A stretch of DNA of 58,300 nucleotides from Psammoneis japonica (lineage: Eukaryota), in contig QPGO01000084.1 of NCBI GenBank assembly GCA_008632985.1, forward strand, positions 310,001-368,300. The letters run 5' to 3'. Under the pieces are notes generated by a model. The model was not told the DNA's origin, ran no database searches, and worked only from the letters and a program-made list of their open reading frames with translations. Positions 7,201 through 52,599 of the stretch are shown here, piece by piece. Numbering within the stretch: the stretch's first letter is position 1; every line of letters begins with the position of its first letter. The position numbers were made by a program, and so were the translations under genes.

Positions 7201-9399
7201 TCTAGAGGAGGTGTGACATTATTTGTGCGGCCTTTTCATGGGAAGTCTGTTGCAAAATTCTTGCTGCAGGTGCTCCATTTTTTCTCTTTTGCCGGTGTCT
7301 CAACAACAAGCTTGGCTTCCAAAGCAAAACATCCCAGCACATGACAGCCTGAATTGGAGTGTGCCAACCCATGAATTCTCTTTCACATCAACGCCACACA
7401 CACTTCCACCCCAGCAACTTTTTCATGTCAGAAAAGGCCTCTGTGTGCCATGCTGCGAGCCTGAGTTCTTGAGCTGCAAAAAAGTGACCCAAGCACTGGA
7501 AGCAGAGACCAAGCTCATTTCTCCAACAGACTGCAACTTTCTAGAACTGACCAAGTTATCAAAACTCCAAGCGACAGCCTTTCAAAGGTCCCAACAAGGT
7601 CCCTGGGTGTTGCACATGTGCCTTTTTGGATTGGCGTGTTGGCGGAAGTTGTGAGAGCATCTGGAGAGTTTTTGCTTCTGATTTGAGAGAAACTGTTGCC
7701 ACACTGAGCAGCCCTGTTGGTCAACCCCACAACTGGTGCAATGCCCCTCTGGACAAGTGCATTGATGGGTGTTGTGCTGCCACCACTTCATGGCTGGCGC
7801 CACTTGCGGCTGATTGTGTCCTGTCCACTGATGCCCCACTGGGCAGCCCCACCCAACATCGTCCAAATTGTTTGTGCAGCAAAATTTGTTCTTTTCCAGA
7901 TTGGCAGACATGCGTGTGAGTTTTTGTGCTGTTGCCTCATGACTGTGCACAGTTGATGAAAGGTTGGTCAAAATCTTCAAATCTTCCCGAGCCCTGCCAG
8001 GTGACCCCGCACATGGAGACATTCCATCCAATGCATGTGTGAACACATGCTTGTGAGCTTGCACCACTGTTTTGCCACTGGATGACTGGCAAGATGCTGC
8101 CTTGGATTGCAGGGCATGTGTGCAATGCCTGCGCATCTCCTGACGAGCAACCCTTCCACCACGTTTGTGCTGCCCCCCCCCCCCCCTGCAGCAAAAGCTG
8201 ACGCATGTCCAGGCACAAGGTTTTGCCGCTGCTTCTTCAGTTGGAACAGCTGACAAGATGCTGTCTCTTGTTTGGAACAGCTGACAAGATTTTGTCTCTT
8301 GTTCCTGTGTTGTCACAAGATCAAGTGTCTCATCTGCCCAGCCTCAGTGGGTGGCTTGTGTTTGCAATCAGTCTGATGTCGAGGTCTCTTCTCCAGCATT
8401 CGTGGGTTTCGGCCCCGCATTTGGAGAGACACAGCTGCACGGAAGATTGCTTCTTCAACAAAGGGCGGCTCACTTTGGTGAAGAAACAGAATTAAAATTT
8501 AGAATTGCATTGGATGGGGTGCTGCAACAAAGAGATGCCAGATGCGAAACACACAAAGAACCTCGCCAATCTAAGTGCCGGTCGACGGAAACTGCCGCTC
8601 ACCACAGACGCGGGAAACCAAGCCTGAGGAGAAGAAACAGAGCCAAAAAATTAGAAATGCATTGCATGGGGTGTGGCAACAAATGAAAGAGACACCAGAG
8701 ATGCACCCTCTCACTTCAGTGCCGGTGCATGTCATGCATGCCACTCCTGCAATGGATGCTGAAAGTCGCTCGGATGGCTTTTTCACGACGCGGCATTTCT
8801 GAAGGAACCGAGTTGCGTTGTCGATTTGGTCGCTTTCACATGAGTTTCTTGCGCATGAGTTTCAATGAGCCGCTGAAAAGAGAAAAAGGAAGACGATTGC
8901 AATGAGGGGCATGGCAAAATTTGATGCATCCAATGCAATGAAATGCAGCAACACAACAAGAGGCGTTCGGCAAATGCTCACACACCACAAGAAGCAACAA
9001 ATTGGAGTGGCAAGAGGAGCACAATTGCATTTTCAAAATGCATTCACTCATGACAAGCGAACAGAGAAGTGAGCGCACCCGCATGTGACCACAAGGGAGA
9101 GCAACAGCAGAATCACGAAGGAGAAAACAGCGGAGTGAAGGTGTGTGGCATCATGTCGGTGTGAGGTGTGAGGTGTGCATGTGCGTTTCAGTTTCCCTCA
9201 CTTTTGGCCTGTCAAAGGGATTGCCCGTGTCAATTTTTAACATCACATGTTTGTTCGTCTGCTTGCATGTGGATGAACCTTAAAATCAACACGAAGGGCC
9301 CATTTTTTTTGCACCGCGTGTCACATCCCGTCTGACTGGACATTCATGTCCCTGACCCGGGCATGTTGTCAAGAATGTGCTTCAAGTGTGGAGGAGGAG

Positions 9400-9537
9400 A
9401 TGCGTTTGCAAAATTGCCTCTTTTTCTGTTGGCGATCATTCATGTGTCCATTGCTCAATGATTTTGCTGCGGAGCTCGCACGCAGAATTCTACGGGCCCA
9501 ATGTCACAAAAAGTCCCACCCAGGGCTGGAACCCGTC
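9400..9537 (+). mobile_element. Right end of a mutated copy of the GACGCGTTCCAG-TIR MITE family
   Basis: gcaaaattgcctc...ttgctgcggagctcgcacgcagaattctacgggcccaatgtcaca...cccacccagggctggaacccgtc matches the right ends of the copies at 40318, 47630 and 55329, with TA>TG/CA changes. Confidence 0.75.
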
Positions 9538-10209
9538 TGTCCATCGCCAGGCGACAGAGGTCAAAATCTGACATTGCTTCTTCGGCAGGTGACTCAATCT
9601 CACTGTCAAGAGCTGTCCTTGGTGAGGAGTGAAATCAGGTCTGCTTCAGCATTGCCCTGACAGCTGCGCTGAACACAGAGAATCTTCTTTCGCAATGCAC
9701 ACACGACAGAACACATGGCTGCACTTGTTGGTGCATGTTGAGAGGCTTTCATCCAAAACAAATGCACACAACCACTCTGGGCGAGCACCAGGGCATGCAA
9801 GCAAGTCACCACCCTCTTTCACAAGAGCAGTTGATGGCGCAAATTCATGAATGCAGTTGGAAATCGGCTCCGGCAGTGCTGCGGCGATGGACTTCCCGCA
9901 CAAGAACCCCACATCAACCGCAGCGCCCGAAAGCATTGAATTGGTTGACGACGACTCGAGCGACAACGAATCATCGATGCCGGAGCGCACTGTGGAAGAA
10001 TGGATCATCCAAGCCTTCACTGAGAACCCCAAGCTCGAAGAGAGTTTGTTTCGTGCAGGCAAGATTTTGGCATTGCACCATCTCTTGGCAACCGACGATC
10101 GTGTTCAACACGTCGTCATGGGACATGCACGTCGTGCCATGACCGCACATTCATCCCCATCGGAGCAACGGGAGCACTGGAGGGCTTTGAGTGCCCCAAT
10201 TTGTTTCAC

Positions 10210-10548
10210 CTGACTCTGACATGTTGGCAGGCTCACACACCACTGCATCCACAAAGGCTGTTGTCATTTCCTTTGTGTCAAGCATGGTCTTGCTGATTGA
10301 CAAGATCTGTGCTTTCAACCAGATTGCCTCAATGACTCTCCTGTCACACTGGACATCACAAGCAATCGCAGCCTTCTTTGAGTGGTGCCACCCAGATGGA
10401 TCCATGATGACGCAGACATTGCACCCTTCTGCAACAAGAGCTTTGAGAAAACCACAGAGCTTGTTCTTGGCATCATGCACAGATGTTGAACTCCAAAGCT
10501 TGAAACACAACCAAGAAAAATCCACACCAACCGCTGGTTTTCCCTGAT
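10210..10548 (-). pseudogene. Possible XPG/Exo1 N-terminal (PIN-like) nuclease fragment, TA-mutated
   Basis: GKPAVGVDFSWL...LVAEGCNVCVIMDPSGWHHSKKA resembles the GK.vavD.s.W / v.vfDG...p..K pattern; weak match. Confidence 0.3.
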
Positions 10549-10949
10549 GGTCAGCAGAGTCAGCAGCAGTGGCTTGCTTGGAGCATGTGCTGAATGAACA
10601 CTTGACCACCTGGCAGTTTCTCAATCTCGTGCACAATTTGTGACCCGCCGTTGATTCCCGCTGCTGCCAATCAAAGCATCTGTGCAACTGTGGCGGAGTT
10701 GACAACAGACTGCCGCAATGCTGCGAGTGATTGAGGCAAAGCACAATCTGCCACTTCCATTCTGACTGCACTTGCATTGTCATCATCATCAGCAACATGT
10801 CATTCCCACGGTTGGTGTGGCATCTGGCATGATTTTTTTGTTTGTTTGAGTCAATGAACTGATGGAAGGACAGGCCAAGTGAAGCCATTTTTTCAGACAG
10901 CCCATGTCACCCAGTGGTGCAGTGTGAAGTGCAGATGGCACAGTGGGAT

Positions 10950-12430
10950 GAAACGGTGTCATGCGGGTGGGGAACAGGAGGGTTCTTGGGGTTGGATTGG
11001 CAAGTTGTGAGGTTGAAGTTTGGTGGAGCGGCAAAGAAGTTGGTCAGCAAGGATTTGGCGCTCATGAGACTGAGACTTTGAAAGGCCCGTTGGCTTTGGG
11101 TGGTGTGGTGGTGTGTGAGGCCAAACCTGGTCAAGGTGATGGTGTTCCAGGCAGTTGTGGCAGTGGGAAGAAGGCCGGTGGGGAGAGTTGGGCATTGGTG
11201 CAGGCGGTGCAAGCAGATGGGTGGTGAGAGGAGGATTCCAAGTTCCAGGGTGGGAGAGGTGGGGGGGGAGTGGATGTTTTTGGGTGTCGCCAAACAGGAG
11301 GTGATGAGTGAAGCATCCAGGCGAGCCAATGTGATCAATGGTGAATGGCACAAGGCAGATGCCAGCATCATTTGAGGGAGTGATGACAGCAGTGCCGTGC
11401 TGAGTCTTGTGGGTCACGCGGAATTTTCATTTTGTGCTTGTGTGGTGTGCCTTGGTCACAGGGTCTTCAATGGGGGCAGGCAAGCCAGGTGCTGGAAGCA
11501 GCAGGGGCTTGGGGGGNGGGGGGGGGGGGGGGGTGGCAACATTGACAGATTGACAGCAAGGCAGGAGTGGGTGGTGGGTGCAGCAGCAGAGGAGGCAGGA
11601 GTGAGCTTGACCTCAATGTTGGCAGGGTGCTTGAGTGGTGAATGTGGGATGAGGTTGGTGGGTTTGTGGTGGACGTCTGAGGAAGGCCATCATGCAGGGA
11701 GTTGGGCTGGGTGACATTGTGGCCAAGAGAGCAGCAGCAAAAGGCATGATCTCCACATGGGTCAGGGGGCAAGCCAACCAGAGGAAATGGCAGCTGTGGC
11801 TCACATTGTGGCATGAGTTGACAGACGGCAGGTGACAGGCACTGGGATGTTTTGGAGCGGGTGAAAGAGGAGTGCACAATGGAAGACTTGCCAGGGGTGA
11901 GAGGATGGATGAGAGTGCAGCGGTGACATGTGGCAGGACATGGCTGTGGAGGTGGTCAAGTTTGTCAGCACAATGTGGGTGACACATGGTGTGAGAGAGG
12001 GTCTTGAGTGGACAACACTCAACTGGAGCAGGGAGTGAGGGGGGTGGGGGGTTTGAGGCATGGCAGCAGAGCATTGCCCCAGTCCCCAGTGACAGAGTGC
12101 TTTGTGCAGACTGAGGGATTGTCTCAATGTGACCCAAGTTTGGAGAGAGCAGGCACAGAAGGGAAGCATGAGTCGGGGGGTTCATCAGTGGAGGAGGTGA
12201 GGCCGTGGGGGTTGCATGGCAGAGGGAGCAGGCCAGTGTTGGGCAGTGAAGAAGAGGGTGGCGCTGGCTGGCTGTTTTTTGCTGATGCACACCTGACACC
12301 AACTGCAGATGCAGGGAGGTGGGAGAGTGGCAATGTGTGTGGTGGAAAAGAGGGCCTGGGTGGGTGGTGAGGTGTTGAAGGAAGGTGTGGCAGTGGCGTT
12401 GGGTGTTTTGTTGGAAAGGTGACATCCACG
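10950..12430 (-). mobile_element. Degenerate non-LTR retrotransposon 3' region (CRE/R2-like, zinc knuckle plus restriction-like endonuclease)
   Basis: Minus-strand remnants SRSKTSQCLSP...LPF...DPCGDHAFCC...NSLHDGL, VDVTFP and LVPFTIDHIGSPGCFTHHLLFG; many frameshifts; both TA and CG depleted. Confidence 0.5.
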
Positions 12431-12989
12431 CGGTGTGTTGTGTGGAGTGAGTCTCAATGCACACGATGGAAGAGACTTCTCTCCCGTGACAGCTTGTGGC
12501 TGCACAGTCATTGAAGAGACGGACCAATGTTTGGCAGAAGACCAGTTCGCACTTAAAATCACATTTTTGTGTGTGAGTTCATGCCATTTGCATTTCCATT
12601 GAATTAGAGAATAAATTCCCTCAACGAAAACAATTCCTGCACTGTCACTGTTTGATTCCTCGCGTGATCTGCACTCGCCCCTCAACGGAAGAATTGTCTC
12701 TCCCACACTTGCACACTCACCTGCCTCGGGTTGCTGAGAAAAAAACCAACATCCGGGTTCAACGACAGCTTCAGAAGCGCAGGCCCCACACAGCAGCGGC
12801 TGGCATGTCTCTGCGTGTGTGCGCAAATTTGTCACGTGCCACATGAGAAGCTTGTGCTTCTCACACGCATGAGGCTACGACCAGCACAAAGGCACCTGTT
12901 GTGCCGGTCAGACATTTTGCATTGGTTTTTTTTTTTGGCCATCAACAAACCAGAATGCGCCACAAAAGTAAAAAAACATTTTTGAAATC

Positions 12990-13830
12990 ATGGACAGTGT
13001 GTCACCCGAAAATGGACTCTTTCCTTGCTGTGTCAAGAACCATCAGGACAAACCTGTCTTTGCCAATCAGAAAATCACGTTTGGGGCCATGGCGGACAGT
13101 TTCTACGAGCACATGCTCAAGGTGTGGTTGCAGGGCGGAAAGGCGGAAACAATGTGCCGCAAAATGTGTGACAAGGCGATCCAGGGCATGCACGATGAAT
13201 TGCCACACACGACACACGCCAACGCCGTCCGGTCTCACCTGCATTGCCGACAAGAACAGTGGTCGTGTTGATCACAAGATGGACCTTTTGGTTTGCTTCA
13301 TGGGAGGCAAGTTTTTCGCTTTTCTCCCGTGATGCTGGTGGTGTTGTTGGTCCTCATTTTCCTTCCCATGGCTTGCTTTCTTGTTTTGCGGTTAGGATTG
13401 CTCGCGCTTGGAGCCTGCACGGACCCGAAAGGCCTTGATTCGGACCGTGCTCAACGCGACCTCAAGACTGGAAAGGCTCTTACCTGCACGTGCTGTCAAA
13501 TGCACGCTCGCATGAACACGGGCATTTCGGCGGAATGGGTTCAGTTCCACCCCGACGAGGACTTTGCGATTGGTCACGGCTCTCCTCATCATCTCTTGAG
13601 ACCGGAAGCGGTCGAGTCCATGTTTGTTCTCAATCAACTCACGGGTGATCCAGCGCACCAAGAATGGGGATGGACCACCACAAGACAAGATGGAATCTTT
13701 CTTCTTGGCAGAGACTCTCAAGTGTTTGCATTTGTTGCAGGATCCAGATGCTGCACACCCGTGGACATTTTAGACAAGCATGTCTTCAATGCGGAAGCAC
13801 ATCCAATGCGAATCTTTCCAGCAATTGACA
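12990..13830 (+). pseudogene. Glycoside hydrolase family 47 alpha-1,2-mannosidase, 3' fragment with one intron (13307-13395)
   Basis: FGAMADSFYEHMLKVWLQGG, DHKMDLLVCFMG|GLLALGA, LLRPEAVES, DKMESFFLAETLKCLHLL, HVFNAEAHP; removing the gcaagt...ttag intron restores the frame; deletion after EWGW; Tyr>Cys/His throughout. Confidence 0.9.
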
Positions 13831-14030
13831 AGGAAGGGAAGCAAGCAAGCAAGCAGGCCCCACTCCATGCTCTAGCAGAGGGCCCTCCACCATTTTGGAG
13901 AGAGAAGATTGGGGCTACGGCAGTGCGACCACGGTGTTTTTTGACGATGTCATGTGTTCAACACAAAGAGTCCGTCGCATCTGTTCTCAATCAATGTCTC
14001 CGGAAATGAAATTGGTGTGAAAGTCTTCTT

Positions 14031-14216
14031 CTTAAAAGCGGAGCTCGTTCAAGCCGACGTCATCCAACGGTCGGCACGGAAAACCGTCAGCCGTTAGCAC
14101 ATGAATCGCCAATCGCCAACGGTTTCCCTGTCTCTCGCCACATTTTTCCTTCCACCACGAGAGAGCAGCTCACAATCTAGACGATCATTCGCTTTTCATG
14201 CCGCTCCACTTTTAAG
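14031..14216 (+). repeat. 5' LTR of gypsy 1
   Basis: Direct repeat of 22670-22855 with 6 substitutions; inverted termini CTTAAAAG...CTTTTAAG. Confidence 0.95.
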
Positions 14217-14231
14217 TGGTGCTTCGACACG
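14217..14231 (+). promoter_or_regulatory. Putative primer-binding site
   Basis: TGGTGCTTCGACACG directly after the 5' LTR; TGG is complementary to tRNA CCA; the tRNA is not assigned. Confidence 0.6.
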
Positions 14232-14259
14232 TCATTCGAACACATCATCTTCGGTCTGC

Positions 14260-16756
14260 ATGACCATGGCCGATCAACCGCCGGCTAAACGCGTTAAAAC
14301 GCAATCCACCGACGAATGTCTCGCCAACCCCCTGTCCAAAACTTTCATCCCGAAACAGCGCATGTCCCACACGCATGGACGAATCACCTTCTCTTCTTGT
14401 CCCCCCCATCACCGCCAAAATGGGCGACGCCGAACGATGCTTGGCATTCAACATCAACAAAAATGCCGTCAACAGCACGTCCGGACTCACCCATGCCAAC
14501 TGTCTCACAATCATGGGCAATCTAACGAACACCATCAGCCTTGTCTAAGTTAAAACCAACGAATTCAAGACAACGGGCAAATCCTCCCTCAAGCAACCGG
14601 CCAACCTGACGGCACTGTCCCACCACAACACAGCAGGCAACCTCATCCAAAATTGCCTTGACGACGAAGGGCAACTCAGACCGATCCAAGACGGACCCGT
14701 GGCAAATTGCCGCCCCGACGGAATCATGTGCGCCAAAATCAGAGGCATCATTGACCTTGCGTCCCTCAGCGAATCAGCCAGGAATCCCACGATCACGTTC
14801 TTTGTTCGTTTGCCTGTGGAGAACGCAAACGTAACCAACGCCGCCAGAAACCAAGTGAATCCACTCACCTCCAATGGCCCAAGCAACTGCATCACATTGG
14901 ACAATCAAGCTTGTCAGGATGTCATCTGTGACAACAACGATGACGCCATCCAAGAGCCACTCGATCTCCAAGCACCCAATTTCACTGACCCCGACGAAGC
15001 AACCATCTCCACCGAAGCAAAAGGCATGAGGATTGATGCTCTCATCACCCAAGCAGGGCACAAGACCATCCTAAATGACGTTTTTACGTCCATCGCGCCC
15101 ACATTCGTGGACGACCCATTCAAAATGCTCAGCCGAGTCCATCAAACCACTGCCCAGTCAGACGGGACAACCATCTCATCGACAGTGCAAGAATGTCGTG
15201 ACAATTGCAATGTCGCACTCAGTGCCCTCCCCAATCACCCAGACTCCGAGTGGCAGTCCAATCCTCTTCGCACATTCGTGGACAATCTCGATCCCCAGAT
15301 TCGTCAAAAGATGGAGTCGGATGGATTCCGACGTCATGTGGAAACGGTGTCACTACGTTGTTCTGACCAAACAAACCTCATCCAGGAGGCGTTCTCAGCC
15401 GCCAAGAAAGCGGAATCAGCTCTTGCGGCGAATCGTCTCTTCATTCAAGGCGAGCTCCATGAGACTCACGGCTTTGCTGCCGTTGTTCAGCAATCCCCGG
15501 CGTCCTCATCCCTTGCATCCATGAACACTCCCACTCACCAGCAAGCTGCAGTCAATCACAGCGCAGCCGAAACTGCTCTCAATCGCTGCAAGACCGCAGG
15601 CAAAGGCTGTTGGGGCTGCGGATCAACCGATCATCTGTGTTGTGACGCCAAAACCAAAACCATCACTTGTCCCAGGGGTGCAGAACCAGAAATCCAGAAG
15701 AACGCAGAAATCGTCCGCAAGGACTTTGTTGAACGCATGAAAAAGTGCCGAAACGGAAACCGTCGCCGTGCCCAAGGACAATCCAACGCAGGCAATCTTC
15801 TGCTGTCAGCCCTGCTTTCCCCTCAATCTCGGACCGGAGGGAACGATGAAATCACGAAGCTCATGCTCAGCTCCATCAAACAGTCGCTGCTCGGAAAGGA
15901 CAACGGCAAGGAGGAGAAGGAAAAAGAAGCATTCACGTTCCACTCCTGCGTCCTCCAATCATCCACTCCGAGCAATCTGCCGCAGCCACCAATCCCGGTC
16001 AACAACACACTTCCCCACATCGTCCTCCAGCTGGGATCACCCGACGCTACGTTCAACCCCGGCATTCATGCCATCGTGGACAGCGCCGCTGCCCCAGTCT
16101 GTGGGAACAGCGACCACTGGATGCCTGTCGCCAAGGCTTGTCCCGAGCTCGTCAAGAGCACCTGTCATGCGAAGGATCATTGTTCGCACATCATCCTCTC
16201 CGGCGTCGTTCAGAAGGACGACAAAACGAAAGTTGATGCATCCACCAACCTTCCCGCAGCTCTAGAATTTTTCATGCCATGCATGACGAAGAATGGTCAC
16301 CCCACGTCACTGAAGATCGCAGTCGGGAAGAGCGTCTCGGCAAACTGCATCATCGGAATGAGCTTCATCTCGACAGCTCAACTCGTCATGGATTTCTCTG
16401 ACAACGTTGTCGAGTCCAAACTTCTGGAATGCGAACCATTTCCAGTCGAATGTCGCACCCCATCATGCTCGACACCGAAGATCATCCCTCGCACGGAACC
16501 GGTGTCCACACCGAGCTTGATTTCGATCAAGCAACAACTTTCCGATGTTGACAAGTTCATCACGAACTGCTCACACGATGACAAACCTCGTGCAGAAATC
16601 CTCACCAACTTGACTTCATCACGAGTCAAGTTCGACCTTGGTCCATCAACGGCCACACTTTCTGGTTGGTGCTGTCCCATGCCCAAACCTCTGTCGCACT
16701 CCATGATGTCAAAATCAACACATCAAGCCAACCAGTTGCATCACGCAAATCACTGA
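14260..16756 (+). pseudogene. gag: gypsy 1 ORF1: Gag (zinc knuckle) plus aspartic protease, frameshifted near the 5' end
   Basis: 685-aa ORF 14699-16756 containing CWGCGSTDH knuckle and AIVDSAA...CIIGMSFI protease motifs. Confidence 0.8.
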
Positions 16757-19700
16757 AATTGCTTGGCTCACTGTTGACGTTTCAAACACCATCTGCAGGT
16801 CATCAAGCACCTGCATCCCGCAAACGTCGTCAAATCATCATCCCCAAACCTCCCTGTCGAGCCAAGAAGCCAAATCTCTTCGAAGGACAGAACCTGCCTG
16901 ACGTCCAGAGTAACTTCCAATTCCTTCATGAATCAAGAGTCAGAAAAGTCATCAGGAAGAATGCACGGCCGGCCAGGGCCGACGACGACATCGATCAGAA
17001 ATTTACATCTCGCGTTTGCGAACACGACAGAGACTGTCAAGAGCTCCAGAAACTAAAATTCGATGACAACATGCCAGAGCGAATCAAAACACGAGTCATC
17101 GAACTGGTCAAGGAATGCTGGTGCTGTTTCTGCCAAGAAAACGTCAAGATTCCAATCCAAGATTATGAGTGCGTCATCGACACAGGGGATTCAAAACCAA
17201 CCGCAGCCAAGAACATCCGATGCGGTCTCCACGAAACCCCGATTGTGAACAAAGCCATCGACGCGCTCCTTGAAAACGGACAGATCGTCCCCAGACACAA
17301 GCAGCGAATGGCTCTCTTGCATCGTTCTCGCTCCCAAACCTCATCAAGAAGACGTTGCGGACATCAACGAGTTCATGTGGCGATTTTGCATCAGCTGCAT
17401 CAACTTGAATCAAGTCACCAAAGTCGTCTCATGCTACATTCCATGCTGCGACGATGCCGTCGAGCATGGTTTTGGATCATCCAAATGCTTTTTCCTTTTG
17501 GACGCATGCAGTGGCTGCCATCAGATCAAAATGGAAGAACTGTCCGCCGCTAAGACAGCCTTCGCCGCCCCTCAAGGCAGAAAATGTCGACACACAGTCA
17601 TGCCCTTTGGAGCAGTCAACGGACCCACCACATGCGTCATCATGGCCTACGACCTCAAGGACAACTGGGACCATGAAGCAAAGCAGATGGGTGCCAAACT
17701 GGACGACAGCAACGGGTCAACCATCATCACAGATGATGACTTCGGATTCACAGAGAGCTGCGAAATCGGCCTCAAACATGTCGAGGCAATTCTTCGCGTC
17801 GCTCGTCGTTGTGACCTCTCATGGAAGCCATCCAAATGCTTGTTCTTCCCGGACTCAGTGGAGTTCGTAGGGCATGACTTAACGCGCCAAGGCAATCTGC
17901 CAGCAGACTCGAAAAGCGGACTCCCAAAACGATGGAAACGACCAACGACTGTCCGCGACGCATCCAGTTTTGTCGGTTTTGGGAACTTCCATCAAAGATG
18001 TGTTCCCTGCTTTTCGGACAGAGTCGAGCACATGCGCAACCTTGTCAAAGACAACGAATTCGATCACAAGATGCTGCCGTCCGAATGGACAAAAGAGCTT
18101 GACGACGAATTCGAGGACATCAAATCTGCCATCCTCTCTAAACCCCTGTTGCGTCGCATCGACCGCAACAAACGGCCGCATCTCCGCACCGATTTCTCAG
18201 GAAAGGGCATGGGCTGTGCACTTCTCCAGCCCGGAGACGACAAAGAATCCCTCGCAGCCATGGAACGGGAAGATGCAGGAGGCAAATGCGAATTTGACAC
18301 CACGTTGAGCGGTCTCCGACTGCTTCCATGCGCCTTCGGATCTAGATTGTGCAAAGGCATCGAACGCTGTCTTCACTCCTGCATGGGAGAGGGTGCAGCC
18401 CTTCGCTGGGCGATCCACAAAAACTCTCATGCAGTGCACGGCCGTCCATTTACGAACATCGGCGACTGCTTCGGTCTCCGATGGATCATGTTTTACGACG
18501 GATGCAACCCAGCGATCACACGCCTCCAAATGGAGCTCGTCTCATGGTGGTTCACAATCGTCCACCACCCCAATCGCATGGTTGTCGACGCCGACTGCTT
18601 TTCCAGATGTGGACAGGAAATTGACCCAGACCCACTGCTCACAAAATGCACGACCATCGTTCAACAACAGCTCATGTCGAATCCTCCGGCAGCCACCGGA
18701 GAAGAAGTGCAAGCTGAGAACATGCCAGGCTGTCGACGAAACACCAAAGCTTCGGCCAATGTTTCGACAGCCATCAAGCCCTGCACTGTCAAGAAAGGCG
18801 AAATCGAAGACTCCATCATGCTCGAAAACATGCCAATCCTTTTCGGAGTTTCGAGTGACACAACACCAAAGTCCACGATCCAATGCAGTGGAGCAACGCA
18901 TGCATCGTTTCAATTGCTCACACGCTGCTGGGCCACACACGGATTCTCCTCTGGACACTTCTTCTCATCTTGCAAGGAACATCAATTTCCGCTCACAGTC
19001 GTGGTCGCCACCGATTGCGACATGCCAGGATGCAACCTCATGCAAGAGATCGGCAAGGTTCCAACTGTCTTGTCGTCAGCGAACCATCTCTTGAACCATG
19101 TCAAGCGAAATGTTGCACAGGACCTTCAAGGGTGCTGCATCACGTCACCGCATCTGCCGGACGCATCATCACAACTGGCGTTCGCAAGAACGCAAGCTGC
19201 CATCACAGCGGAAATGCGGAATCGATGCCAACTCAAGTGCTTTGCATTCCAAACAACGCCATTTTTTAAACGAACTGTCCCATCGCAATTCAAGAAATCG
19301 TGTGCAATGGATGGGTGGCATGTCGAAGAAGACGAGATCCGATTTGCTGAAATGGGCGACACGATCGACGACTCAGCGACATTTCTGTTCGGCTTCCACA
19401 TCGGTGTCACAGGACAGAAAGTTTCAGTTCAAATCGTCCGGCCACCCCCGACCCGTTCGTCCATCTCACAATTTATCCACAAACCCTTCAACTCCAAGAG
19501 CTGCGCGATCACCGCTCTGCCCGACACTGCAACCGATGAAGCCGAGGATGACAGATTCATGCTTGAAAAAGTGGCACCTGCTCAACCACCAAAGCAGTCG
19601 GACGCACTCATCATCAGTCATCTCATCAAAAGAGGACCCAGACCAGCGAATCCACGCGGCACAGCAACATGCGACGTGGATCACCCCGCTCCCCCCATCG

Positions 19701-22401
19701 GTCACTACAACTCCAACCCCTTTGGTCAAGTCTTTGGAATGTTTTTCCAAGATGAAGACTCCAAGACAAGAATCCGCTGCATTTCAGCATACGAATGCAT
19801 GTCGTGTTGGGGGCTGGAAAGAAATCTCACGCACAGGATGTGTGCAGACCCCCGCCAATTGAACCCACTCACAAACGGAGTCCCAGGCAAGACAAGCCAC
19901 GCTGTGCTGCAAACCACACACGACAAACTCACAGATGTCAGACTGTCATCCACGGAACTCATCGACACGTCACAGCAAACGGCTCCTGCAGCAACTGCTC
20001 AAGCATTTCTAAATGGCTCCACAACGACCCGACTGCCCAATCGAGAAACCTGGATCCAAGAGTTCTCACGTGACCAAGAAACAAACCTCATGATCAGAAT
20101 GATCAACAACCCCGCCTTGGTCAACAAAGAGCAATTGCAAAACATCCACCACTGCTGTCGACAACCGATGCAAGCAGGCAACATCCGAGTCGAGGACGAA
20201 ATGCTCGTCATCCGTGAATCGGTCGATTCAATCGGCAGTTTTGCCAAACTGCGCATCGTCCCATCATCTCTTCGCAACATCATCTTTGTTGCTTTTCACA
20301 CGAATCCCATTGGAAGCCACTTTAGCGTGCACTGCACCTTTCACAGGATCCGACTTCGCTTTTTCTGGCCGACCATGTGCAAGCACATCGCCGACCTCAT
20401 CAGCAAATGCCCGGGATGCACCCTCGCGAATGCTCGATGCAGACAAAAATCAGAACTGGCACACTCTTTCCCCGTCGATGAGCCATTCAAGCCAATGCAC
20501 GCGGACGCATGCATGGTCGGACGTCATCAAGGTTTCCAAGGTGAAAAATGCCACATGAACATCGTTGACGGCATGAGCACTTTTGCAGTGTCAGAGGAAA
20601 TCTGCGGCGAAGTCAATGCCGAATCATTCAGCAAAGCCATCATGAAGATTCTCCTCAACCATGGACTGTGTCGTGCAATCGTGATTGACAAAGACTCGAA
20701 ATTCCGTGGAGTGTTCATCCAAGCCATCAACCTGCTCGGACTCAACTTGCACCAAGCATCCGGAGGAAAACACAACCCTGTCCTCACAGAACGACATCAC
20801 GCTTTCTTGAACAAATCTTTGCGCATTTTTTGCAACGAACGCGACTCCGTCCAGACAGCCACAGAAGGTGTTCAATTGTCGGCCTGTGCATGGAACTCAG
20901 CCCCAGTCGCAGGTGCAGATGTCAGCCGATCTCTCGTCGCCATCGGCCGTGAATGCTGATTTCCCATCGATTGCACGGACTCCAGTCATGTCAACCTGCG
21001 GCCAACAACAACATCAGTCGAGAATTGCGCCGAACATCTGCACCGTTTACTTCCCATGTGCCAGGAAGTTTTTTGAGTGCTCATCCAAGAGCACAGAGCA
21101 ATGCACCGCAAACACATCAACAGCAACCGACCAGAACCTTTGGTTTGCTCTGTCGGAGACTTCGTTTTCATTCGAAGAGCAGCAAAATCTGATGCTCAAC
21201 GCGGCCGAGTTGACAAGATCATGTGTCGCCACACAGGCCCATGGAAAACAACTGAGAAGCTTCCAGGAGCTTCCTGCCAAATCTGTCGCTGCAAGACCAA
21301 TGCAGAAGACAAAAAGCATGCTTCGCACACAACCCCATGTCCCACTGAACTGGTTCCATTTCCACCTCTCACAGGACCTGACAATGCATGCGGACAAATC
21401 AATCGACAAATCAAGAAGCACCCATTTTCGGAGGCTGGCATTGACTCCCACACGCCACTCCAACCCTGGAGCGTTCAACGCGATGATGAAACGCAAACAT
21501 CTCAATCACTGCTGTCGACAGCCAACATGGCGTGTGTCGAATCTGCTGTGCATTTTCCCACACTCGCTGAACTCAACGATGAACTCGACGGGGTGCACAC
21601 CGAAGACGGGTTCTTGCCAGCGATGACGGATCATCTTAAACCCTCATCGAACAAAGTGTTCATCGAGGCACTCGAAGGCAGCACATCGAGCACAAACAAC
21701 AGTGCGGACTCGACTGGCCCCCAGTCCAACATCGGAGCGCCCACAGTGCAGCAAAACCACAAACAATCACACTCGGTGCCGAATCTCAATCAGCTCATGG
21801 CCCGCATCATCCAAAGCAACCACAAGTTGTTCTTCATGTCGTGTCGAGCACCAGGCACAACTCGCACCGAATGGAATCTTGTTCAAGTTAACCTTGAGCA
21901 AACTGTGGCGGAGAATCCCAACGCTTTCTCCGACAGCAAAATCTGCGTCGACTTCTGCACACGGCATCCGCATGATGCGCAACTCAATGCCCCAAACCAG
22001 CGACATTGGAAGGAATGTCACGAGCCAAATGGACAATGCATTCTCCACAATGACTTTCATCTGCTCAAACCTTCCCCGAATGAAACCAGTTGCGCACGTG
22101 ACAAACGATTGATCGTTTTCTCCCAGTGGGGCACATCCATCACCCAGACATGTTCCTTCATGGACCGCTCAATTTTGCAACGATCAACGGACGCCAAACA
22201 CGCGATCGCATGTCAGCTCACGACTGGAAAATGTCATCATCGTCATCCGAACACTGCGACAATGAGTCACCAAGCCCCAACCTCTCCCATCCATCGCACT
22301 CACATCACGTGAATGCACAGTTTCACACTGTCCATCAAGACCCTGCCATCGAAGCCCGACTGTCTGCTCTCCTCACATGCGAGTGCACGCGCAACAATTG
22401 A
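16666..22401 (+). pseudogene. pol: gypsy 1 Pol: RT, RNase H, MTase-like insert, integrase, C-terminal unknown domain; frameshifts/stop near 17290, 20959, 21077, 22130
   Basis: RT LLDACSGCHQI / MPFGAVNGP / IITDDD; RNase H LRTDFSGKGMG / GEGAALRWAI; integrase H..H..CPGC, HAD, IDKDSKF, ERHH, HTGPW. Confidence 0.9.
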
Positions 22402-22669
22402 TCCCAGCTGCTGATCAATGTTTGACGGCAATCCCTGCCGCACTGTGCTCAAACCATTCCAAAATGGAGTTGGCGCCAAAGTCAATCTCAGGTTCAAAAC
22501 GAGCCACCTCCTTCTTTTTCTTTTTCTTTTTCCAATGGGGTTTTTGCGTTCAAGCCTTTTTCCCGAATCATCACTCATCTCCCATCACAATCCTCGTGGT
22601 TCCACGTTCCGCTTTCATCCTCATCTTGTCAGAAGCTCAAGATTGGCCTCTGCCATCTTTTCTGGGTGG

Positions 22670-22855
22670 CTTGAAAGCGGAGCTCGTTCAAGCCGACGTC
22701 ATCCAACGGTCGGCACGGAAAACCGTTAGCCGTTAGCACATGAATCGCCAATCGCTAACGGTTTCCCTGTCTCTCGCCACATTTTTCCTTCCACCACGAG
22801 AGAGCAGCTCATAATCTAGACGATCATTCGCTTTTCACGCCGTTCCACTTTTAAG
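22670..22855 (+). repeat. 3' LTR of gypsy 1
   Basis: Direct repeat of the 5' LTR, preceded by a short purine-rich gggtgg and followed by TSD TCTT. Confidence 0.95.
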
Positions 22856-23304
22856 TCTTTCTTGGCAACGTAGAGGATATAATTTATATCCTATTCGCCG
22901 GATAGCATATAAAATCGAATTTGATTAGTCCGACTGAAAAAAATCTTGATGTACCCCCTTTGGAAAATTTCAGTCCATCTAATCAAATGATTTTTATGTG
23001 TTTCAAAGGACATTTATATATATTGTATAGAAAGAGCGCGTATGACTTTAAATAATAAAAACACTCCAGTAACGAATGTTATAGATTTGTCATGATGTGC
23101 GAACACACGCCTACAACCGATAAGATGAACGCGATACATAGTCTCTATTCCAGAAGATTGAAGATCTTAAATCACCAATCACAAAGCACATAGCATCGCA
23201 TTGCTTGCTGTTGCTGTCTTTTGAATGCGGTGAGTTTGTTTGTTTCTATATGCTCCTCTATATGCTCCTCAACGATCGCTTTTGCCGTTAATGTCATCTC
23301 ACTG

Positions 23305-23856
23305 ATGCTCTCTATAAGGTTATTGCTCTCGACTCGATTGATTTGGGGTGTTGCGGCAGCATTCACGTCAAGCAACAAAAGCAGATTTTCACCCTTTGTG
23401 ATTGGCACCGAGACAAACACACTGATTTGCCGTAGCATGTCTGGAACCGATGAAGTAGAAGCCGCCAAGGCTGCCGCTGCATCGTACAAGTCGTCGGATA
23501 AGGATGGCGCTGGACCCGCCACGGTCTTTGACAAGATCTTATCCAAAGAGTGGTCGTCTGACGTTGTGTATGAGGACAACGAGTGTTTGGCCTTTCGAGA
23601 CATTAACCCACAAGCTCCGACACACATTGTGCTCATTCCCAAGGATCGTGACGGTCTCGTGACCTTGTCGAATGCAAAGCCATCTCATAAAGCCATTCTC
23701 GGGCATTTAATGTATGTTGCGGCGCAAGTAGGAGAAAAGGAATGCCCGAATGGATATCGTCTCGTACTCAACAACGGCTCGGATGGTGCTCAGTCGGTTT
23801 ATCACTTGCATTTGCACATTTTTGGAGGACGTCAAATGACTTGGCCGCCGGGATAA
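23305..23856 (+). CDS. HINT: HIT-family (HINT/PKCI-like) nucleotide hydrolase, probably plastid-targeted
   Basis: TVFDKIL...VYEDNECLAFRDINPQAPTHIVLIPK...GAQSVYHLHLHIFGGRQMTWPPG; N-terminal hydrophobic stretch ending in AAAF, then a Ser/Thr-rich transit-like peptide. Confidence 0.92.
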   Translation: MLSIRLLLSTRLIWGVAAAFTSSNKSRFSPFVIGTETNTLICRSMSGTDEVEAAKAAAASYKSSDKDGAGPATVFDKILSKEWSSDVVYEDNECLAFRDINPQAPTHIVLIPKDRDGLVTLSNAKPSHKAILGHLMYVAAQVGEKECPNGYRLVLNNGSDGAQSVYHLHLHIFGGRQMTWPPG

Positions 23857-28130: not shown

Positions 28131-28479
28131 ACCTTGCATCAATGCTCTTAACCCTGTTACATTTCCCAGTGACGGTGTATTCATGAACGCCGTGCCGCCA
28201 TGGTGTTTTATTCTCGCCTTTTTCACGAGTCGTCCAGACAGTTTTGAGGTTATGGGCTTAAACCACACTACCATACACTGTGTCGCTTCGCGCGTAGAAA
28301 AAATGCACCGTGGCGAGAGCCAATCAGAATTCAGCATTGGGGATTTCTACTTAGGGAAGGTCCTCGGAAAGTCGAGGACTTTCTGACCAATTAATTAACA
28401 TTTTTTCGGAAAATCTGACGCAATCACTTAGGGACGAGGAGGTTGAGACAACGCACCAAAAGCAGACACAAGAATCAGA

Positions 28480-31400
28480 ATGTGCGGAGACCGACTATCT
28501 CTTCCTTTCGCGCCACGGAAAATCACAACAACACAGACTTCTCACGCGATGAGAAAAATTCTCTCACAAAAAAAACCCACGAGAGAGAAAAGTACAATCT
28601 CTACTGGTGCTTCGATGATGACGGACATAACCGAAGAATCTGCTCCAACAAAAGTGGCTGCAGAGCGGCAGCTACATCCTTTCTTTAGCAACATGGGAAT
28701 TCAATCCCAGAAACGCAAAGGCTCCATCAAAACGAGCAAAAGCCAAGCGCACACACGCCAGAAGCGGACGCATCAGAGCGATTTTAGTGGGCGTAAGGTG
28801 CCAAGAGTAGACGACGGAACCAAGACATGCAAGAGATGTGACAAAGGTCCTACATATCATCATGGCCATGATCCCACATGTAAATTTTCAAAGAGGCACT
28901 TGCAAGTGAACGTCACCAAAGCCACCATGGATGCAGAGCGACGTGATAAAGAGCTTCACGAAACAAACAACACGATTCCGGATGCTCCAGAAAAGGGAGT
29001 GTCAACCATACGAGACCATTTTGGAACACAGAAACCTACAGCTCGAGCTGTGTTGCCTCCTCCAGGTGTTTCCAATGTTTGCAAGCCGGTGAATTCGGGG
29101 GTGGCTGATGCTGCAGGCCCCATGGAGCGCGCCGAGAATACCCAGAAGTCGGCCACTGATACTAAATTTTCGGTTGAGACTTTGAAACGAGAGATTCGAG
29201 CACGAGTGAAAAGTATGAGAACTCAGAGGAGAAGACGAAGTGCCCGGCTGCAGTGAGTGCTCTTGTCAGTTATCTGTTGGATTCTGTCAAGCCGAGATTC
29301 GAACAAGGCAGCAACAAGTATCCTGTTGCTACAGCAAAAAGCACTAAACTCAATGAGATTCTGGAGGTCAAGGATGGTGCTTTTCCTCCTGGTACAATAT
29401 CTTTTCAGGTTCCCAAGGATGACTGCACTTCACCGCCTGATTGTTACTACCATCAGCTGCAAGGTATGACAATGTACATCGTTTGTTGGGAGCTGAACTA
29501 TCCCAACATCTATCTCTCCTGCATTGACGGAGAGTGCGACGGGGAAATGATTCATGACCGTATGGACTTTACTCGATATGGTGGAGCGACACCAATGTGT
29601 TGTATCAGCGGGAAGACGCACATGGCGGTGTCAATGTGGTACGAATGCAATAAATGCAAAATTCGATGCAAGGGTAAAGACGGTCGAATGCTACACAAGC
29701 TGCCAAAAAGCCTACAGTCAGCATATCCAACATTGCCTAAGTATGCTAGTGCAAGCAACAAGTGGCATCTCACCAAGGAAACTACAAGACTCCTTGAGTC
29801 CTTTATTGTCACGTACGCAAACGGGGATAAGTTCTCGCACATGCTGCACCAAATGCGAGGCGGCTATTTCGTGGACCTCCAGAAAGAGTACTACGAACGA
29901 GCCACAGACAAAAGCGAAGAGTGGGTGTCTTTTGAGAATTGGATAGGCGGGTACAGCCCATCACCCTCAGCACTTCTTGATCTTTATGACGAATCTGGCG
30001 AATCAAAATTGACGGCTCTTGACACGTCCTCTTATGACAGGTGCACGAGATTGTTGCAGATGGTTGGAGCCGCCGTGAGCGTCGCATCCGACCACACTTT
30101 TCAAATTCTCAAAAACTACTCAAAGAAAGCAGGCGGAGCAGCAGGCCTGTTCACCATGTGCAACGAAAAGGGGCAGGTTGGAACCGCTTGCCTAACCCCA
30201 ACATTGGAAGCAAAAGATTTTGCTCACGCGGCAGAACAGTTTGCCAGGCGAAAGAACGTACGCCCCGAAACTCCACTACAGCGACACCTGGCCGAATAAG
30301 TCTGAGTTGTGGAAGACGATATTCGGAATGAACATAATCTGTCTCCTTGGGCTCTTTCATTGGATGCACCGAATTGTAAGAACGCTCCGAAAAGAACATG
30401 CTGATTATTGGCAAGCTGTCAGTGATCTCAAAGCAACCGTATCATATGCCGAATGGTCCGACCGCCAAGCTGTGATACAAGCCTTGAAGGACAGCACGCT
30501 AAACAACAAGAAGCATTCTGATGAGGAGATACACGATATCATACACTCTTCAAGGTGGAAGCACTACCAGGAATACATTCGTCTCTGGAGGCACCCGCTG
30601 GAGAAAAGGCTCACGTTGCTCGAGGATTGGTTTGCTCGATACAAGTGTACTGCCTCCGATGGAGCCCCCGCTGCTGGAGGGCGTCTAGATCCAGACAGTG
30701 GACTATCGTTATTTACAACCGACACAAAGGATGCAGTTTTGAATGCTAAAGAAACCTCGAAGGGATTGGATACTCCAGTGCCGAAGTCGGAGCAGCACTG
30801 GCCTGTAGCGCCGTCCCTGCGGTCGAAAGCAAAACTGGTGAAGTGGCGAACGCTACTAGGACCCGAATCCAAATTGGAGAAGGCACACGATTCACTGGCA
30901 CATTATGGAAATTGTGGAATGAGACATTCATTGATGGACTTGATTACTTTGGAGGGATTAGTTTTGTACAATGAAACAATTGAAGAGAAGGAGAGAATCG
31001 AGAAAATGGATGCAACGGCGCGAGCCAAGATTCCATATGACTTTCGGGGTGTGGTTACTCATCGGAACGTGCTCAATCTAATCGAAATCAACAAGCTAGC
31101 AACAAAGATGGGGAAGAAAGCGCCCTGTCCAGATGTAAGGGAACTCGAGGCGGACACCGGCGAGCGTTTTCTGTCCAAGTACCTGCGGGAGCAGAATGCC
31201 AGAAATGAAACAATTGCTCCACACCCCGAGACAGATCGATGTATGTGCAATCTCTGTGGGACAAAACCGGTCGTAAATCCATACAAGCGAAAAACAAGAT
31301 CAGAAGCTGGAAACCGTGAAGACGAGGAAACTGCAGCGGCGCCAACCGTTGAACCTACAAGTGGTGTTGTGGAAATTGCGATGGCTCCCGAGGTGACGGT

Positions 31401-31746
31401 TGAACCTGTGTGCATGGATGACACTCCAGTGCTCAATGCAGCTCATGTTCAAGTCGAGAAGCAGTTCAACATGCTGCAAGCCATGAGAAGCACCCTAGCA
31501 CAGCAGCTTGCTTTTGCATCGAGCATGAGTGCAGCCCTCCCATCTGTTCCATATCAAGTGCAACCGGCTCTTTCAATTCTTAATGATCCGATACGGGATC
31601 AAAGGAAGCAGGACATTGATCATTACTGTTGTCCTGTCTTCTTACAATACAAGCTGCAGCAAAGCTACAGTGTGACGGGGTGCCGACCAAGAGGTCGACC
31701 AGCGCATTCTAAGGATTGCCCAAAGAGACAGCAGTCAACAAGGTAG
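28480..31746 (+). mobile_element. Mutator-like / DUF6729-type DDE transposase gene split over three overlapping ORFs (28480-29256, 29253-30299, 30220-31746)
   Basis: SDHTF (D1), YSDTWP (D2), LGLFHWMHRI (xxH motif), ESKLEKAHDSLAH (E), upstream YECNKC; two single frameshifts. Confidence 0.6.
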
Positions 31747-36221: not shown

Positions 36222-36565
36222 ACTGTTACGCCTCTATCTGTAGCAGTGCACTACAGTTCGAAAAGAACGCAAGGAGCAGTGTTGCCTTTTCCTTTTAGCT
36301 ACAGACGCCTATGCTAGAGTAGTAAACGATGAAAATCTTGCTCTAACTAGTGTTATAGAACGGGCTATCGAAGATAAGAGACTCTCTTCTCTCTAGCTAG
36401 CTAGAGTAGAGAGTAGGCCTAATCAGATTCAACTACCGGTATTATTTAGTCGATGGAGTCAAATAGGTGCTGAGCTGTTCGCAGAACCCACTCATTTTTC
36501 TCCTCACTTTTTCTTTTTTCTCTCGCTCACATTTTTCCATATTCTCTGTCGACGAAACAAACACC

Positions 36566-38734: not shown

Positions 38735-40317
38735 CTATCGTGTGATGTACGAGAACACGGAAGAACGTCTGATATTCCTCGTGTAAATCTCCGATAGCCA
38801 AATGCGCTCTAGTAGCAGTACTTGATTCATGGCAACTAGAGTAGACTCTTTGGTCGACTAATAGAAATACTTCGTACGCAAGCTTTACACAATATCTGTT
38901 CAGGACAGTAATACAACCACTACACGGTTAAACCTCGGCCCTACTAAATTATCACTAGACGCAACGGAATGCGTGACAGCATTGGAGCCGCTGTCCATGA
39001 CGTCCGATTCCGTTCATGCACAACTCAGCAACAAGTCTTTTTTGCTGTCTTTGTCTCCAGCAAGTGCAGCTTGTGGTCAATTCCCAAGAACCAGAGATGC
39101 TTTGTTGACTCCCAGCAGCAGATGGCAAGCAATTGCCTTGCTTCCAGTGTGGCTGTTCCATGCCCTTTTTGTGATCATGTCAAGCCAAAATTGCTTGTGT
39201 TTTCCACTCCTGCCTGTGCTGTCACATTGATGATTGGGTGAGTTCACACATGCATCAATCTGAACACAGATGAAAAAACAACTGGTTTTAAATTCTGCTG
39301 CACCTTTGCCCAGCATTGCCAGCACCGGCTGACCCACCACACTTCCAGTGCAGCACCAAGTGTGTGCCAGAAAAAAAGAGCTAGCCAGGAGATGGCACCC
39401 AATGAGTGCAGCTGGCAATGGTGCAGGCACCCCAAAGCATGAGCACTTTGTTGCCAATTTTGGGCTCTCACTCAATCGTGGACAAAGTGCTGCAACCCAG
39501 TTCCTGATTTGGGTTGTTGAGTGTGTCTTGCTGCACTCCTCTGCCTGATCCACAATGAGCACCAGCTGGTCTTTGGCCAGGCACTCCTGGCATTTGTTGC
39601 GTGTGGGCTGGCCCTGAAATCTGCCTCAGCCAGTTCTTGTTTTCTGACTGGAACTGTCTCAGCAAGGCCAAGTCACACAACAGTTGAGCCAAGCATTGCG
39701 GGGTGACAAACTGTTGCCAGCCAACCTCAGTGTGCACATCTCAAAGGGCTCAATCATGACACTCTGCCTCAGCATCCAAAAAGCTTCAACGGCCCTCTCT
39801 TTGAGACAAGTGAGTGCCCCAACATTCTAACATCCAAGTCACCAAGACATCGTTGAGGATCCAGAACAGCAGCACATCTGTGCTCAACATTTGCTCAGGT
39901 CTGACAAGGCCAGCCATCTCTGGAAAGACAAAAGATGTCACAGACTTGACTTGTCATTGCAGCTCCACTCCAGATCATGTGGCAGCAGCTGTTCAAGCTC
40001 AAGCCCAGCTGCTTGGTCTGTTGCACCAAAAAGGCAGGGTTCCAAGGCAGCTTTCACACTTTTTGCTTGCAAAGCACTGTCATGCATGGTGAGCCTGTCT
40101 GAAGGTGCCTGTTGCTTCAGCATCAGATTGCTTGCATGTTCCTGGGACATTGAATTGACAAATTTTCCTCAAAGTTCAGTCAACACCTGTGATCTGCTGG
40201 GAGTTTTGACCACTCACCAAAACACCCCACCAACCAATTTGCTGCTGCCTTTCACCCAAGCTGCTCTGTGTTCCTGAGAACATGAGCTGTGCACTAAAAT
40301 GTGTTCATTGTGCAGCT

Positions 40318-40715: not shown

Positions 40716-40881
40716 AGCTCCACAAAATCAGCAATGCAGTGACAAGCACAGCAGATTGTCTTGAAAATTGTGTGCTCACAGTGTGCCTCATGCACTCTGT
40801 TCATTGGATGGCCATGCCTTCCTCACAGCATCAGATTGTGGCTCACCCTCCACAAAGAGACAACTCACTCTCTGAGCCACT

Positions 40882-41260: not shown

Positions 41261-41269
41261 TTGTGTGTG

Positions 41270-45623: not shown

Positions 45624-45649
45624 CTCCAATGTGCAATTGGGGAGGCGAG

Positions 45650-52456: not shown

Positions 52457-52599
52457 GCAGACCCCATCGTCCGCGGCGTCTTGCGTGGGGATGACCTGCA
52501 ACGGGAAATGATGTTACCACTGCTCTAGCACTGTCGTCGGCAAAATACCTGGTCTTCGACCATAATAGTAGAGAGTCTTGCACATGCGTAAAGCCTGAC

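Follow-up and report, generated by a model that had tools for sequence, protein, structure and literature searches.

A conserved C5-cytosine methyltransferase fold, apparently without catalysis, in the Pol of a diatom-associated Ty3/gypsy retrotransposon lineage

A stretch of 58,300 nucleotides from Psammoneis japonica (contig QPGO01000084.1, positions 310,001 to 368,300 of the forward strand; hereafter the window, whose own numbering is used throughout) contains a long terminal repeat (LTR) retrotransposon at 14031-22855, and the main pol open reading frame (ORF) of this element carries a large extra domain between RNase H and integrase. Modelling confirmed that the insert has a complete bacterial-type C5-cytosine methyltransferase fold, and sequence comparison with its relatives indicates that the domain is an ancient, conserved pseudo-enzyme in which catalysis has been lost family-wide. 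Very probably, an ancestor of this gypsy lineage acquired an entire C5-cytosine methyltransferase, which became part of Pol between RNase H and integrase; the nucleophile, the catalytic loop and the base-flipping arginines were then lost while purifying selection kept the two-lobed fold. The domain (18905-19951; residues 10-358 of the model) lies on the forward strand, as do the other parts of the element, and comprises the large domain, the target-recognition domain and motifs IX-X. Between RNase H and the H2C2 finger there are 550 amino acids (aa), as against 78 aa in a second gypsy element of the window. The original prediction, which had been made from the DNA alone, was right that the insert is in frame and stands where the second element has a short linker; its size of ca. 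330 aa was an underestimate, the folded domain being ca. 350 aa and the entire extra stretch, including linkers, ca. 470 aa.

An AlphaFold2 model was built from window positions 18878-19972 and 128 relatives, with no templates and no methyltransferase in the alignment. The model of the domain reached a predicted local distance difference test score (pLDDT) of 94.6 and a predicted template modelling (TM) score (pTM) of 0.91. The top Foldseek match was M.HhaI (E 4e-16, TM score 0.68/0.75, 12% identity), and the list consisted solely of entries of the C5 cytosine methyltransferase family, so that the predicted C5-methyltransferase-like domain was borne out by the AlphaFold/Foldseek comparison that had been proposed for it. 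The match was reproduced with an intact element, L065 (E 8e-13), and a BFVD search placed viral C5 methyltransferases on top (E 2e-12). In a wide fold search, M.HhaI (306 aligned of 365 residues, root-mean-square deviation 3.5) and M.MpeI (310 of 365, 3.0) both scored Z 25.1; ranks 1-20 were all members of the C5 methyltransferase family, rank 4 being a carboxymethyltransferase, and the first non-C5 fold had a Z of 10.7. Scores were lower for DNMT2 (20.2-21.1), DNMT1 (20.0), DNMT5 (19.5) and DNMT3 (18.4-19.0). An identity as a DNMT2 tRNA methyltransferase was rejected, since its Z is below that of M.HhaI and M.MpeI and the catalytic motifs are absent. The model is two-lobed, with the motif order I-VIII, target-recognition domain, IX, X.

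At the level of sequence, the insert gave no Pfam match even at E 1, and PF00145 did not reach the Pfam cut-off in 54 relatives from the best 150 of 208, in seven intact pol ORFs or in gag; the PF00145 comparison suggested together with the original prediction therefore came out negative for the insert and the scanned relatives alike. An NCBIfam scan of seven domains from the family returned no matches, and a sequence search of family profiles against solved structures found none; a colicin structure that matched the family profile at E 1.6 was discarded as noise. A language-model search (Atlas), which is independent of structure, assigned PF00145 to 29 of 30 matches at 0.95. When the family profile was aligned with 13 real C5 enzymes, it was colinear with them across motifs I-X. 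The alignment was weak (E 7e-5 to 3e-3, probability 10-62%), and its score was 41.4 versus at most 19.9 in 20 of 20 block-shuffled controls.

C5 enzymes require the motif IV Cys, the motif VI Glu and the motif VIII arginines (PMC4802922). In the motif I and II region (18929-19033), which holds GFSSGHF (inside 18929-18964) and VVVATDCD (18998-19021), FxxGH replaces FxGxG, and the latter was present in none of 65 rows of the relatives' alignment. The motif II Asp was found in 53 of 70 rows and in all 11 intact elements; Asp46, Gly51 and Arg52 were invariant among the intact relatives, with Arg52 read as Cys in the window copy. The motif IV strand and the shortened catalytic loop (19130-19183) include ITSPH (19139-19153) at the place of the catalytic Pro-Cys (PC), which had correctly been predicted to be missing: PC occurred in one of 77 rows (P0132) and in none of the 13 loci with an unbroken ORF. 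The motif VI position (19232-19270), which the original prediction had not called, reads LKCFAFQTT (19232-19258) without ENV. No in-register ENV was found, and a Glu in the motif VI region was seen in 6 of 78 rows and two of 11 intact elements. At the motif VIII position (19340-19399; RFAEMGD..FGFH in the window), GD(S/T)IxD replaces GxPQxRxR; QxRxR occurred in none of 85 rows, R.R in three and Q.R in one. The conserved core of the target-recognition domain (19610-19750) is marked by GxxV, PP, NxF and FG. In the region of motifs IX and X (19769-19900), motif IX (RIRCISAYECMSCWGL, 19769-19816) keeps Arg300 and Glu306, and motif X (LTNGVPGKTSH, 19868-19900) has lost GN, which is out of register, with Pro336, Thr339 and Ser340 invariant. 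All six peptides quoted in the prediction thus lie in the pol frame; the Asn of 'NGVP' proved to be no family feature, since N.[VIL]P was found in just 5 of 49 rows. The flanks of the domain hold conserved motifs, xPI/V before it and APAA...(F/L)xNG after it, which we take to be candidate retropepsin cleavage sites from their resemblance to such sites.

The spacing of the motifs changed together with the residues. The interval between the motif IV strand and the motif V Phe measures 18 residues in 73 of 77 rows versus 29-62 in 12 of the 13 real enzymes (one was not parsed), so the catalytic loop, which in M.HhaI is Cys81-Leu100 (PMC4090504), is shorter than in real enzymes by about 11 residues, and about half of it appears to be lost. 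All 13 loci with unbroken ORFs were in the same motif-less state as the window copy. Since the catalytic motifs, including PC and ENV, are also missing from intact relatives, whose tyrosines are in place and whose pol ORFs are unbroken, the loss is not explained by damage to the window copy, and the predicted catalytic alteration is stronger than had been guessed. Against a clean verdict of a dead enzyme, L056 and L057 carry a Cys (position 90) two to three places ahead of the usual one, and their motif VI position (125) holds a Glu; they nonetheless lack the motif VIII arginines and the catalytic loop. Cys at position 92 was considered as a surviving nucleophile and rejected: it occurs in 8 of 90 rows, a frequency like that of Arg-to-Cys decay in other columns of Arg (10 of 86, 11 of 87 and 5 of 77), and the position is Arg in 9 of 11 intact elements. 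The old active-site residues (89-93 and 123-127) differ between sub-lineages.

A phmmer search with the insert returned 208 proteins at E <= 0.001 and 64 at 1e-10, of which the best 150 of the 208 were used; 22 of these 150, two long proteins and mostly matches to the downstream linker, were left out of the alignment. Among the 54 relatives scanned with Pfam, 11 carried reverse transcriptase (RT), RNase H or integrase beside the insert. A named source was found for three of 30 clusters looked up, each being Cyclotella meneghiniana, and the others were environmental records. These records support an association of the family with diatoms, which agrees with the predicted diatom gypsy lineage. 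A scan of metagenomes with an integrase-region pattern gave 40 loci. Whole domains were present in 14 of 14 loci spanning RNase H to integrase, eight of which had an unbroken RT-to-integrase ORF; L070, L071 and L072 are near copies, so that the 14 loci represent about 12 distinct elements. L082 and L086 have an integrase with unrelated upstream DNA, L095 has an internal deletion, and in none of the three is RNase H joined directly to integrase; the pattern was built from proteins chosen by the domain and would miss sister lineages lacking it. Viral contigs contained no relative, a locus scan with the single protein P0011 gave no match, and a word-indexed homologue search gave no matches with the window region, none classed as 'longer' and four classed as 'near'.

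Selection was estimated from pairs of loci, leaving out the frameshifted L058, L061 and L091. The ratio of nonsynonymous to synonymous substitution rates (dN/dS) of the domain was 0.13 for L065/L069 (dS 0.81; integrase 0.03) and 0.08 for L070/L068 (dS 2.2); in the other distinct pairs synonymous sites were saturated, with a proportion of nonsynonymous differences (pN) of 0.24-0.38. Median identity in RT, RNase H and integrase was 48-50%; the domain was lower, at 25-32%, and the linker had 18%. Trees and conservation counts were made without L071 and L072. The domain and integrase trees of 12 elements had seven splits in common, with disagreement confined to one four-member clade, and the branch of the window copy was long and of unsure placement. 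A single capture followed by vertical descent fits these sequence comparisons best. As judged from the ranking of fold matches, the donor was most likely an enzyme of the kind found in bacteria, phages or giant viruses, and not a host DNMT3. With regard to descent from Dnmt3 or DNMT4-related clades, the fold scores favour bacterial enzymes (Z 25.1 versus 18-19 for DNMT3), yet identities of 6-12% permit no tree.

The window copy has been heavily mutated. TpA in the element is 0.07 of expectation versus 0.58-0.59 in the flanks; of the 28 tyrosines of the consensus, 23 are Cys or His in this copy. A signature of this kind has been reported for Bigelowiella natans in a preprint (bioRxiv 10.64898/2026.01.13.699255), whose available text matches the window in signature and contains no mention of diatoms. 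Across the window, TpA is almost gone (observed/expected ratio, O/E, 0.00-0.3) in repeat DNA at 7500-22700, 39000-43500, 45000-49500 and 52500-58300, where CA and TG are raised, and gene-bearing flanks keep a TpA O/E of 0.5-0.7. Between the LTRs of the element, four of six transitions fall at TpA. With regard to CpG, the 11 intact ORFs showed no loss (O/E 0.80-1.23), and 5 of 40 related loci were CpG-eroded (O/E 0.16-0.34); by comparison, SymbioLINE-Dnmt elements show CpG loss, according to a figure legend (PMC5890265). These values suggest that the domain neither methylates its own element nor protects it lastingly, and the eroded loci weaken a strong anti-silencing reading. A depletion of GATC in the 11 intact ORFs (O/E 0.59) was rejected as a candidate signal, since it mostly vanished under synonymous-codon shuffling (142 observed versus 173.5); the window gave 19 observed versus 17.7 under the same shuffling.

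Based on these results, we favour, with a probability of roughly 0.4, the view that the domain assists the reverse-transcription or pre-integration complex as an accessory that binds nucleic acid and has no catalytic activity. The domain would be made within Pol and then packaged in the particle, where its target-recognition lobe would grip complementary DNA (cDNA) or target DNA with no base flipped and none methylated; it would probably be attached to integrase or freed just ahead of it. Most weight is given to nucleic-acid binding because the DNA-recognition lobe is kept whole, and the small lobe of C5 enzymes has a known role in DNA recognition (PMC4802922). Among the 29 residues invariant in the 11 intact elements, seven are in the core of this lobe (His250, Gly261, Val264, Pro272, Pro273, Asn280 and Gly287), with Arg251 present in 10 of 11 elements. 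Another 11 surround the former cofactor pocket in motifs I, II and X (Phe23, Gly26, His27, Asp46, Gly51, Arg52, Phe55, Pro336, Thr339, Ser340 and Leu351), and almost none are in the old active-site loops. The case is not strong, and several observations count against it. The loop that grips the minor groove in real enzymes (PMC4090504) is deleted here, the motif VIII arginines are replaced (position 165 is Asp in 10 of 11 intact elements) and the TL motif of real enzymes aligns with PP. Net charge is unremarkable (-9 to +5) and fails to separate the family from real enzymes, with K+R of 6.9-10.7% versus 10.4-15.2% in the latter. The rate at which the domain changes is about double that of RT, RNase H and integrase. 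In a three-domain model (pTM 0.55), low-confidence linkers lie on both sides of the domain, so that no fixed packing on integrase can be read from it, and the residue equivalences depend on the weak profile alignment described above together with secondary structure. More tentatively, the repurposed fold, its ligand pocket (His27, Asp46 and Arg52) remodelled, may act as a reader of methylation state or as a clamp that coats cDNA and thereby steer or shield integration, in a divergent diatom gypsy lineage with CT...AG LTR ends, an IxDD RT and a C-terminal domain of unknown fold.

Other roles for the fold have to be weighed against the favoured nucleic-acid-binding accessory. DNMT3L is a catalytically dead partner of DNMT3, a host regulator derived from DNMT3, and the insert resembles it in having retained a C5-methyltransferase fold without catalysis; it differs in being transposon-borne and in having a full target-recognition lobe. 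By analogy, the domain could be a protein-binding pseudo-enzyme, either a scaffold for RT or integrase or a decoy that binds a host factor of methylation or silencing, for example DNMT5, and we regard this as rather doubtful, though the most probable of the alternatives. The loss of DNA-facing residues, an evolution faster than that of the enzymes, as a host-facing surface would show, and DNMT3-DNMT3L entries among the fold matches all speak for it, as does the silencing of young transposable elements by DNMT5a in Phaeodactylum (PMC9998398). The domain tree, however, tracks that of integrase with no sign of exchange, dN/dS is low, the nearest folds are bacterial enzymes and not DNMT3, and the CpG-eroded loci and the TpA-hypermutated window copy imply that any shielding is not lasting. 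The 11 invariant residues of motifs I, II and X would also suit a small-ligand sensor, whose remodelled pocket would still bind S-adenosylmethionine (SAM), S-adenosylhomocysteine or a different adenosyl nucleotide, thereby tying the processing of Pol, or integration, to the metabolic state of the host; in EhMeth, the motif II Asp contacts the cofactor ribose (PMC3380923). Such a sensor seems unlikely, since FxGxG is absent from all 65 rows, His stands where real enzymes carry Gly, GN of motif X is lost, and the invariant pocket residues may be merely structural.

Slightly more improbable still is a new chemistry, in which conserved His and Asp residues would form a different active site that adds or removes a base modification on the cDNA or RNA of the element. 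Invariant polar residues (His27, Asp46, Arg52, Asp158, Asp161, His250 and Asn280), the chemical drift known for this fold, to which the carboxymethyltransferase at rank 4 belongs, and the sub-lineage of L056 and L057 with both Cys 90 and Glu 125 are consistent with it; the variation of the old active-site residues among sub-lineages and the fact that no motif depletion in the element DNA outlasted its control are not. A neutral relic or spacer, retained since in-frame deletion is rare, would account for a conservation below that of the enzymes. This reading is largely refuted and has a very small probability, given dN/dS of 0.08-0.13, the pN values at saturated synonymous sites, the fixed loop length and the domain being whole in 14 of 14 spanning loci. 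Least credible of all is an active C5 DNA methyltransferase whose motifs are merely blurred by hypermutation in the window copy. The fold is complete, the window copy has lost most of its consensus tyrosines and one row (P0132) has PC, but intact elements lack PC, ENV and QxRxR, and the Cys at position 92 matches Arg-to-Cys decay at a position that is mostly Arg in intact elements.

Retrotransposons with DNMTs have been described previously: KnitGypsy-Dnmt3 of Klebsormidium nitens, and SymbioDIRS-Dnmt3 and SymbioLINE-Dnmt of Symbiodinium (PMC5890265). KnitGypsy-Dnmt3 and SymbioDIRS-Dnmt3 are like the insert in having a C5-methyltransferase domain inside the retrotransposon Pol ORF under purifying selection. 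Unlike the insert, the elements of that report keep key catalytic residues and are detectable with PF00145, and one of them methylates CG in yeast; the Gypsy and DIRS DNMTs are derived from Dnmt3, whereas the insert is closest to bacterial enzymes by fold. The insert is Pfam-invisible, has lost all catalytic motifs family-wide and is diatom-associated, and the words 'diatom' and 'stramenopile' are absent from the available text of that paper. EpiLTR and DAM-LTR are Ty3/Gypsy elements that, like the present one, have captured DNA methyltransferases, and the DAM-LTRs of Chloro-Ochrophyta also have the captured domain between RT and integrase (bioRxiv 10.64898/2026.05.21.726589). They are detected by Pfam and differ in what they carry, either adenine methyltransferases whose pocket is preserved or domains related to DNMT4 together with chromodomains; the available text of that preprint mentions no diatom and describes none of them as dead. 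Conserved catalytic residues, as expected of retrotransposon-encoded active DNMTs such as KnitGypsy-Dnmt3, SymbioDIRS-Dnmt3 and EpiLTR, were not found in the insert. M.HhaI and M.MpeI share with it the whole fold, the motif order I-X, a similar target-recognition lobe, the motif II acid and the motif IX Arg and Glu; the insert differs from them in its identity of 10-12%, in the lack of PC, ENV, QxRxR, FxGxG and GN, in the loop shorter by about 11 residues and in its fusion to a polyprotein. The diatom Ty3/gypsy elements GyDi1 and GyDi2 of Thalassiosira pseudonana have the order protease-RT-RNase H-integrase (PMC2806351); compared by description only, they have a typical domain order and no extra domain. 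No account of a dead or diatom retrotransposon methyltransferase domain was found in a literature survey that missed most subscription papers, Repbase and supplements.

The retrotransposon-borne DNMTs known so far are active enzymes from a few algae. The present family would be an additional case of capture, independent of these, whose enzyme lost its activity and whose fold persisted through the whole history of a widespread plankton lineage. Since surveys that rely on Pfam, among them those of PMC5890265 and PMC9998398, do not see the insert, the number of such captures counted with profiles is probably too low, and captured epigenetic domains may have a non-catalytic use. The intact elements L056, L057, L063, L065, L066 and L070 make the role directly testable. 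Should the proposed reader or clamp prove right, no pseudo-methyltransferase carried by a transposon would have had a defined role before this one, and the domain might even represent a chemistry of DNA modification that is new for the fold.

The host element has two 186-bp LTRs in direct repeat (14031-14216 and 22670-22855), flanked by a 4-bp target duplication, TCTT (14027-14030 and 22856-22859), and a primer binding site (PBS)-like TGGTGC... (14217-14228) immediately 3' of the 5' LTR. With the RT-RNase H-integrase order, these features place it in Ty3/gypsy. Typical Ty3/gypsy elements have the LTR termini TG...CA and the RT motif YxDD. The termini here are CTTAA...TTAAG, as they are in L061, L063, L064, L065, L075 and L078, in all of which the junction TTAAG|TGGTGC is identical; given such CT...AG ends, the end joined by the integrase of this lineage would be AG. 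At the RT active site, nine of nine relatives covering the motif (L056, L057, L063, L065, L066, L067, L069, L070 and L072) have I(I/V/M)DD in place of YxDD, and the window element has ITDD (about 17726-17737). The 3' LTR is preceded by a T-run and GGGT, not by a clear polypurine tract, and loose contig ends from sequencing run X1 at 22855 suggest further insertions with the same LTR.

The ORF at 14549-16756 (735 aa stop to stop) probably encodes gag and protease, judging from its position and a protease-like AIVDSAA noted by eye; a Pfam scan of it gave no matches. A 5' piece of pol (16582-17553) is in a different frame. At the frame breaks 16711 and 17289 one base is absent in contigs of run X1, and these breaks may be assembly or haplotype differences. 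Among sequencing runs listed as containing the region there was none of RNA, a result uninformative about expression, and the single DNA run may be the source sample itself. The main pol ORF (P0001; 17249-20959, 1236 aa) encodes RT (RVT_1, 17474-17878, aa 76-210, Pfam E 4e-13), RNase H (PF17919 and PF17917, 18086-18607, aa 280-430), the pseudo-methyltransferase and integrase (20009-20956), the last with an N-terminal extension, an H2C2 finger (20258-20434; Integrase_H2C2, aa 1004-1062) and a DDE core, the DDE and H2C2 motifs being kept. The ORF stops prematurely within the integrase C-terminal region, and remains of the integrase SH3 and a conserved C-terminal domain of ca. 175 aa follow at 21077-22312, interrupted by stops and a frameshift. 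In every intact element aligned, the latter domain (window 21790-22300; L065:7873-8403) forms the end of Pol, behind the integrase SH3; it has no Pfam match, and its Atlas scores were all <0.8. At about 18230-18320, RNase H contains an insertion found throughout the lineage; it bears a helix and a conserved Cys (GxCxF) and breaks the Pfam match in two.

Elsewhere in the window, the second gypsy element (40882-46000) is of a different lineage, its 78-aa linker lying between RNase H and H2C2; its LTRs differ largely by TA versus CG double changes, and TpA is at a normal level in the central part of its pol (43500-45000). Short dispersed repeats (D1-D3, D9 and D10) at 9375-9537, 40320-40716, 47630-48018 and 55329-55726 are possibly ends of miniature inverted-repeat transposable elements (MITE) or of terminal-repeat retrotransposons in miniature (TRIM). 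An Rfam scan of the window gave no matches. Long ORFs without a Pfam match are present at 28447-31746 and 50054-52456; the former has Cys/His clusters at 29178-31746 and, by eye, may be a DNA transposon, and the latter directly follows a repeat pair at 48305-50096. Host genes recognised by eye are a HIT-family protein (23440-23856), immediately after the 3' LTR, and a DEAD-box helicase (36467-38734).

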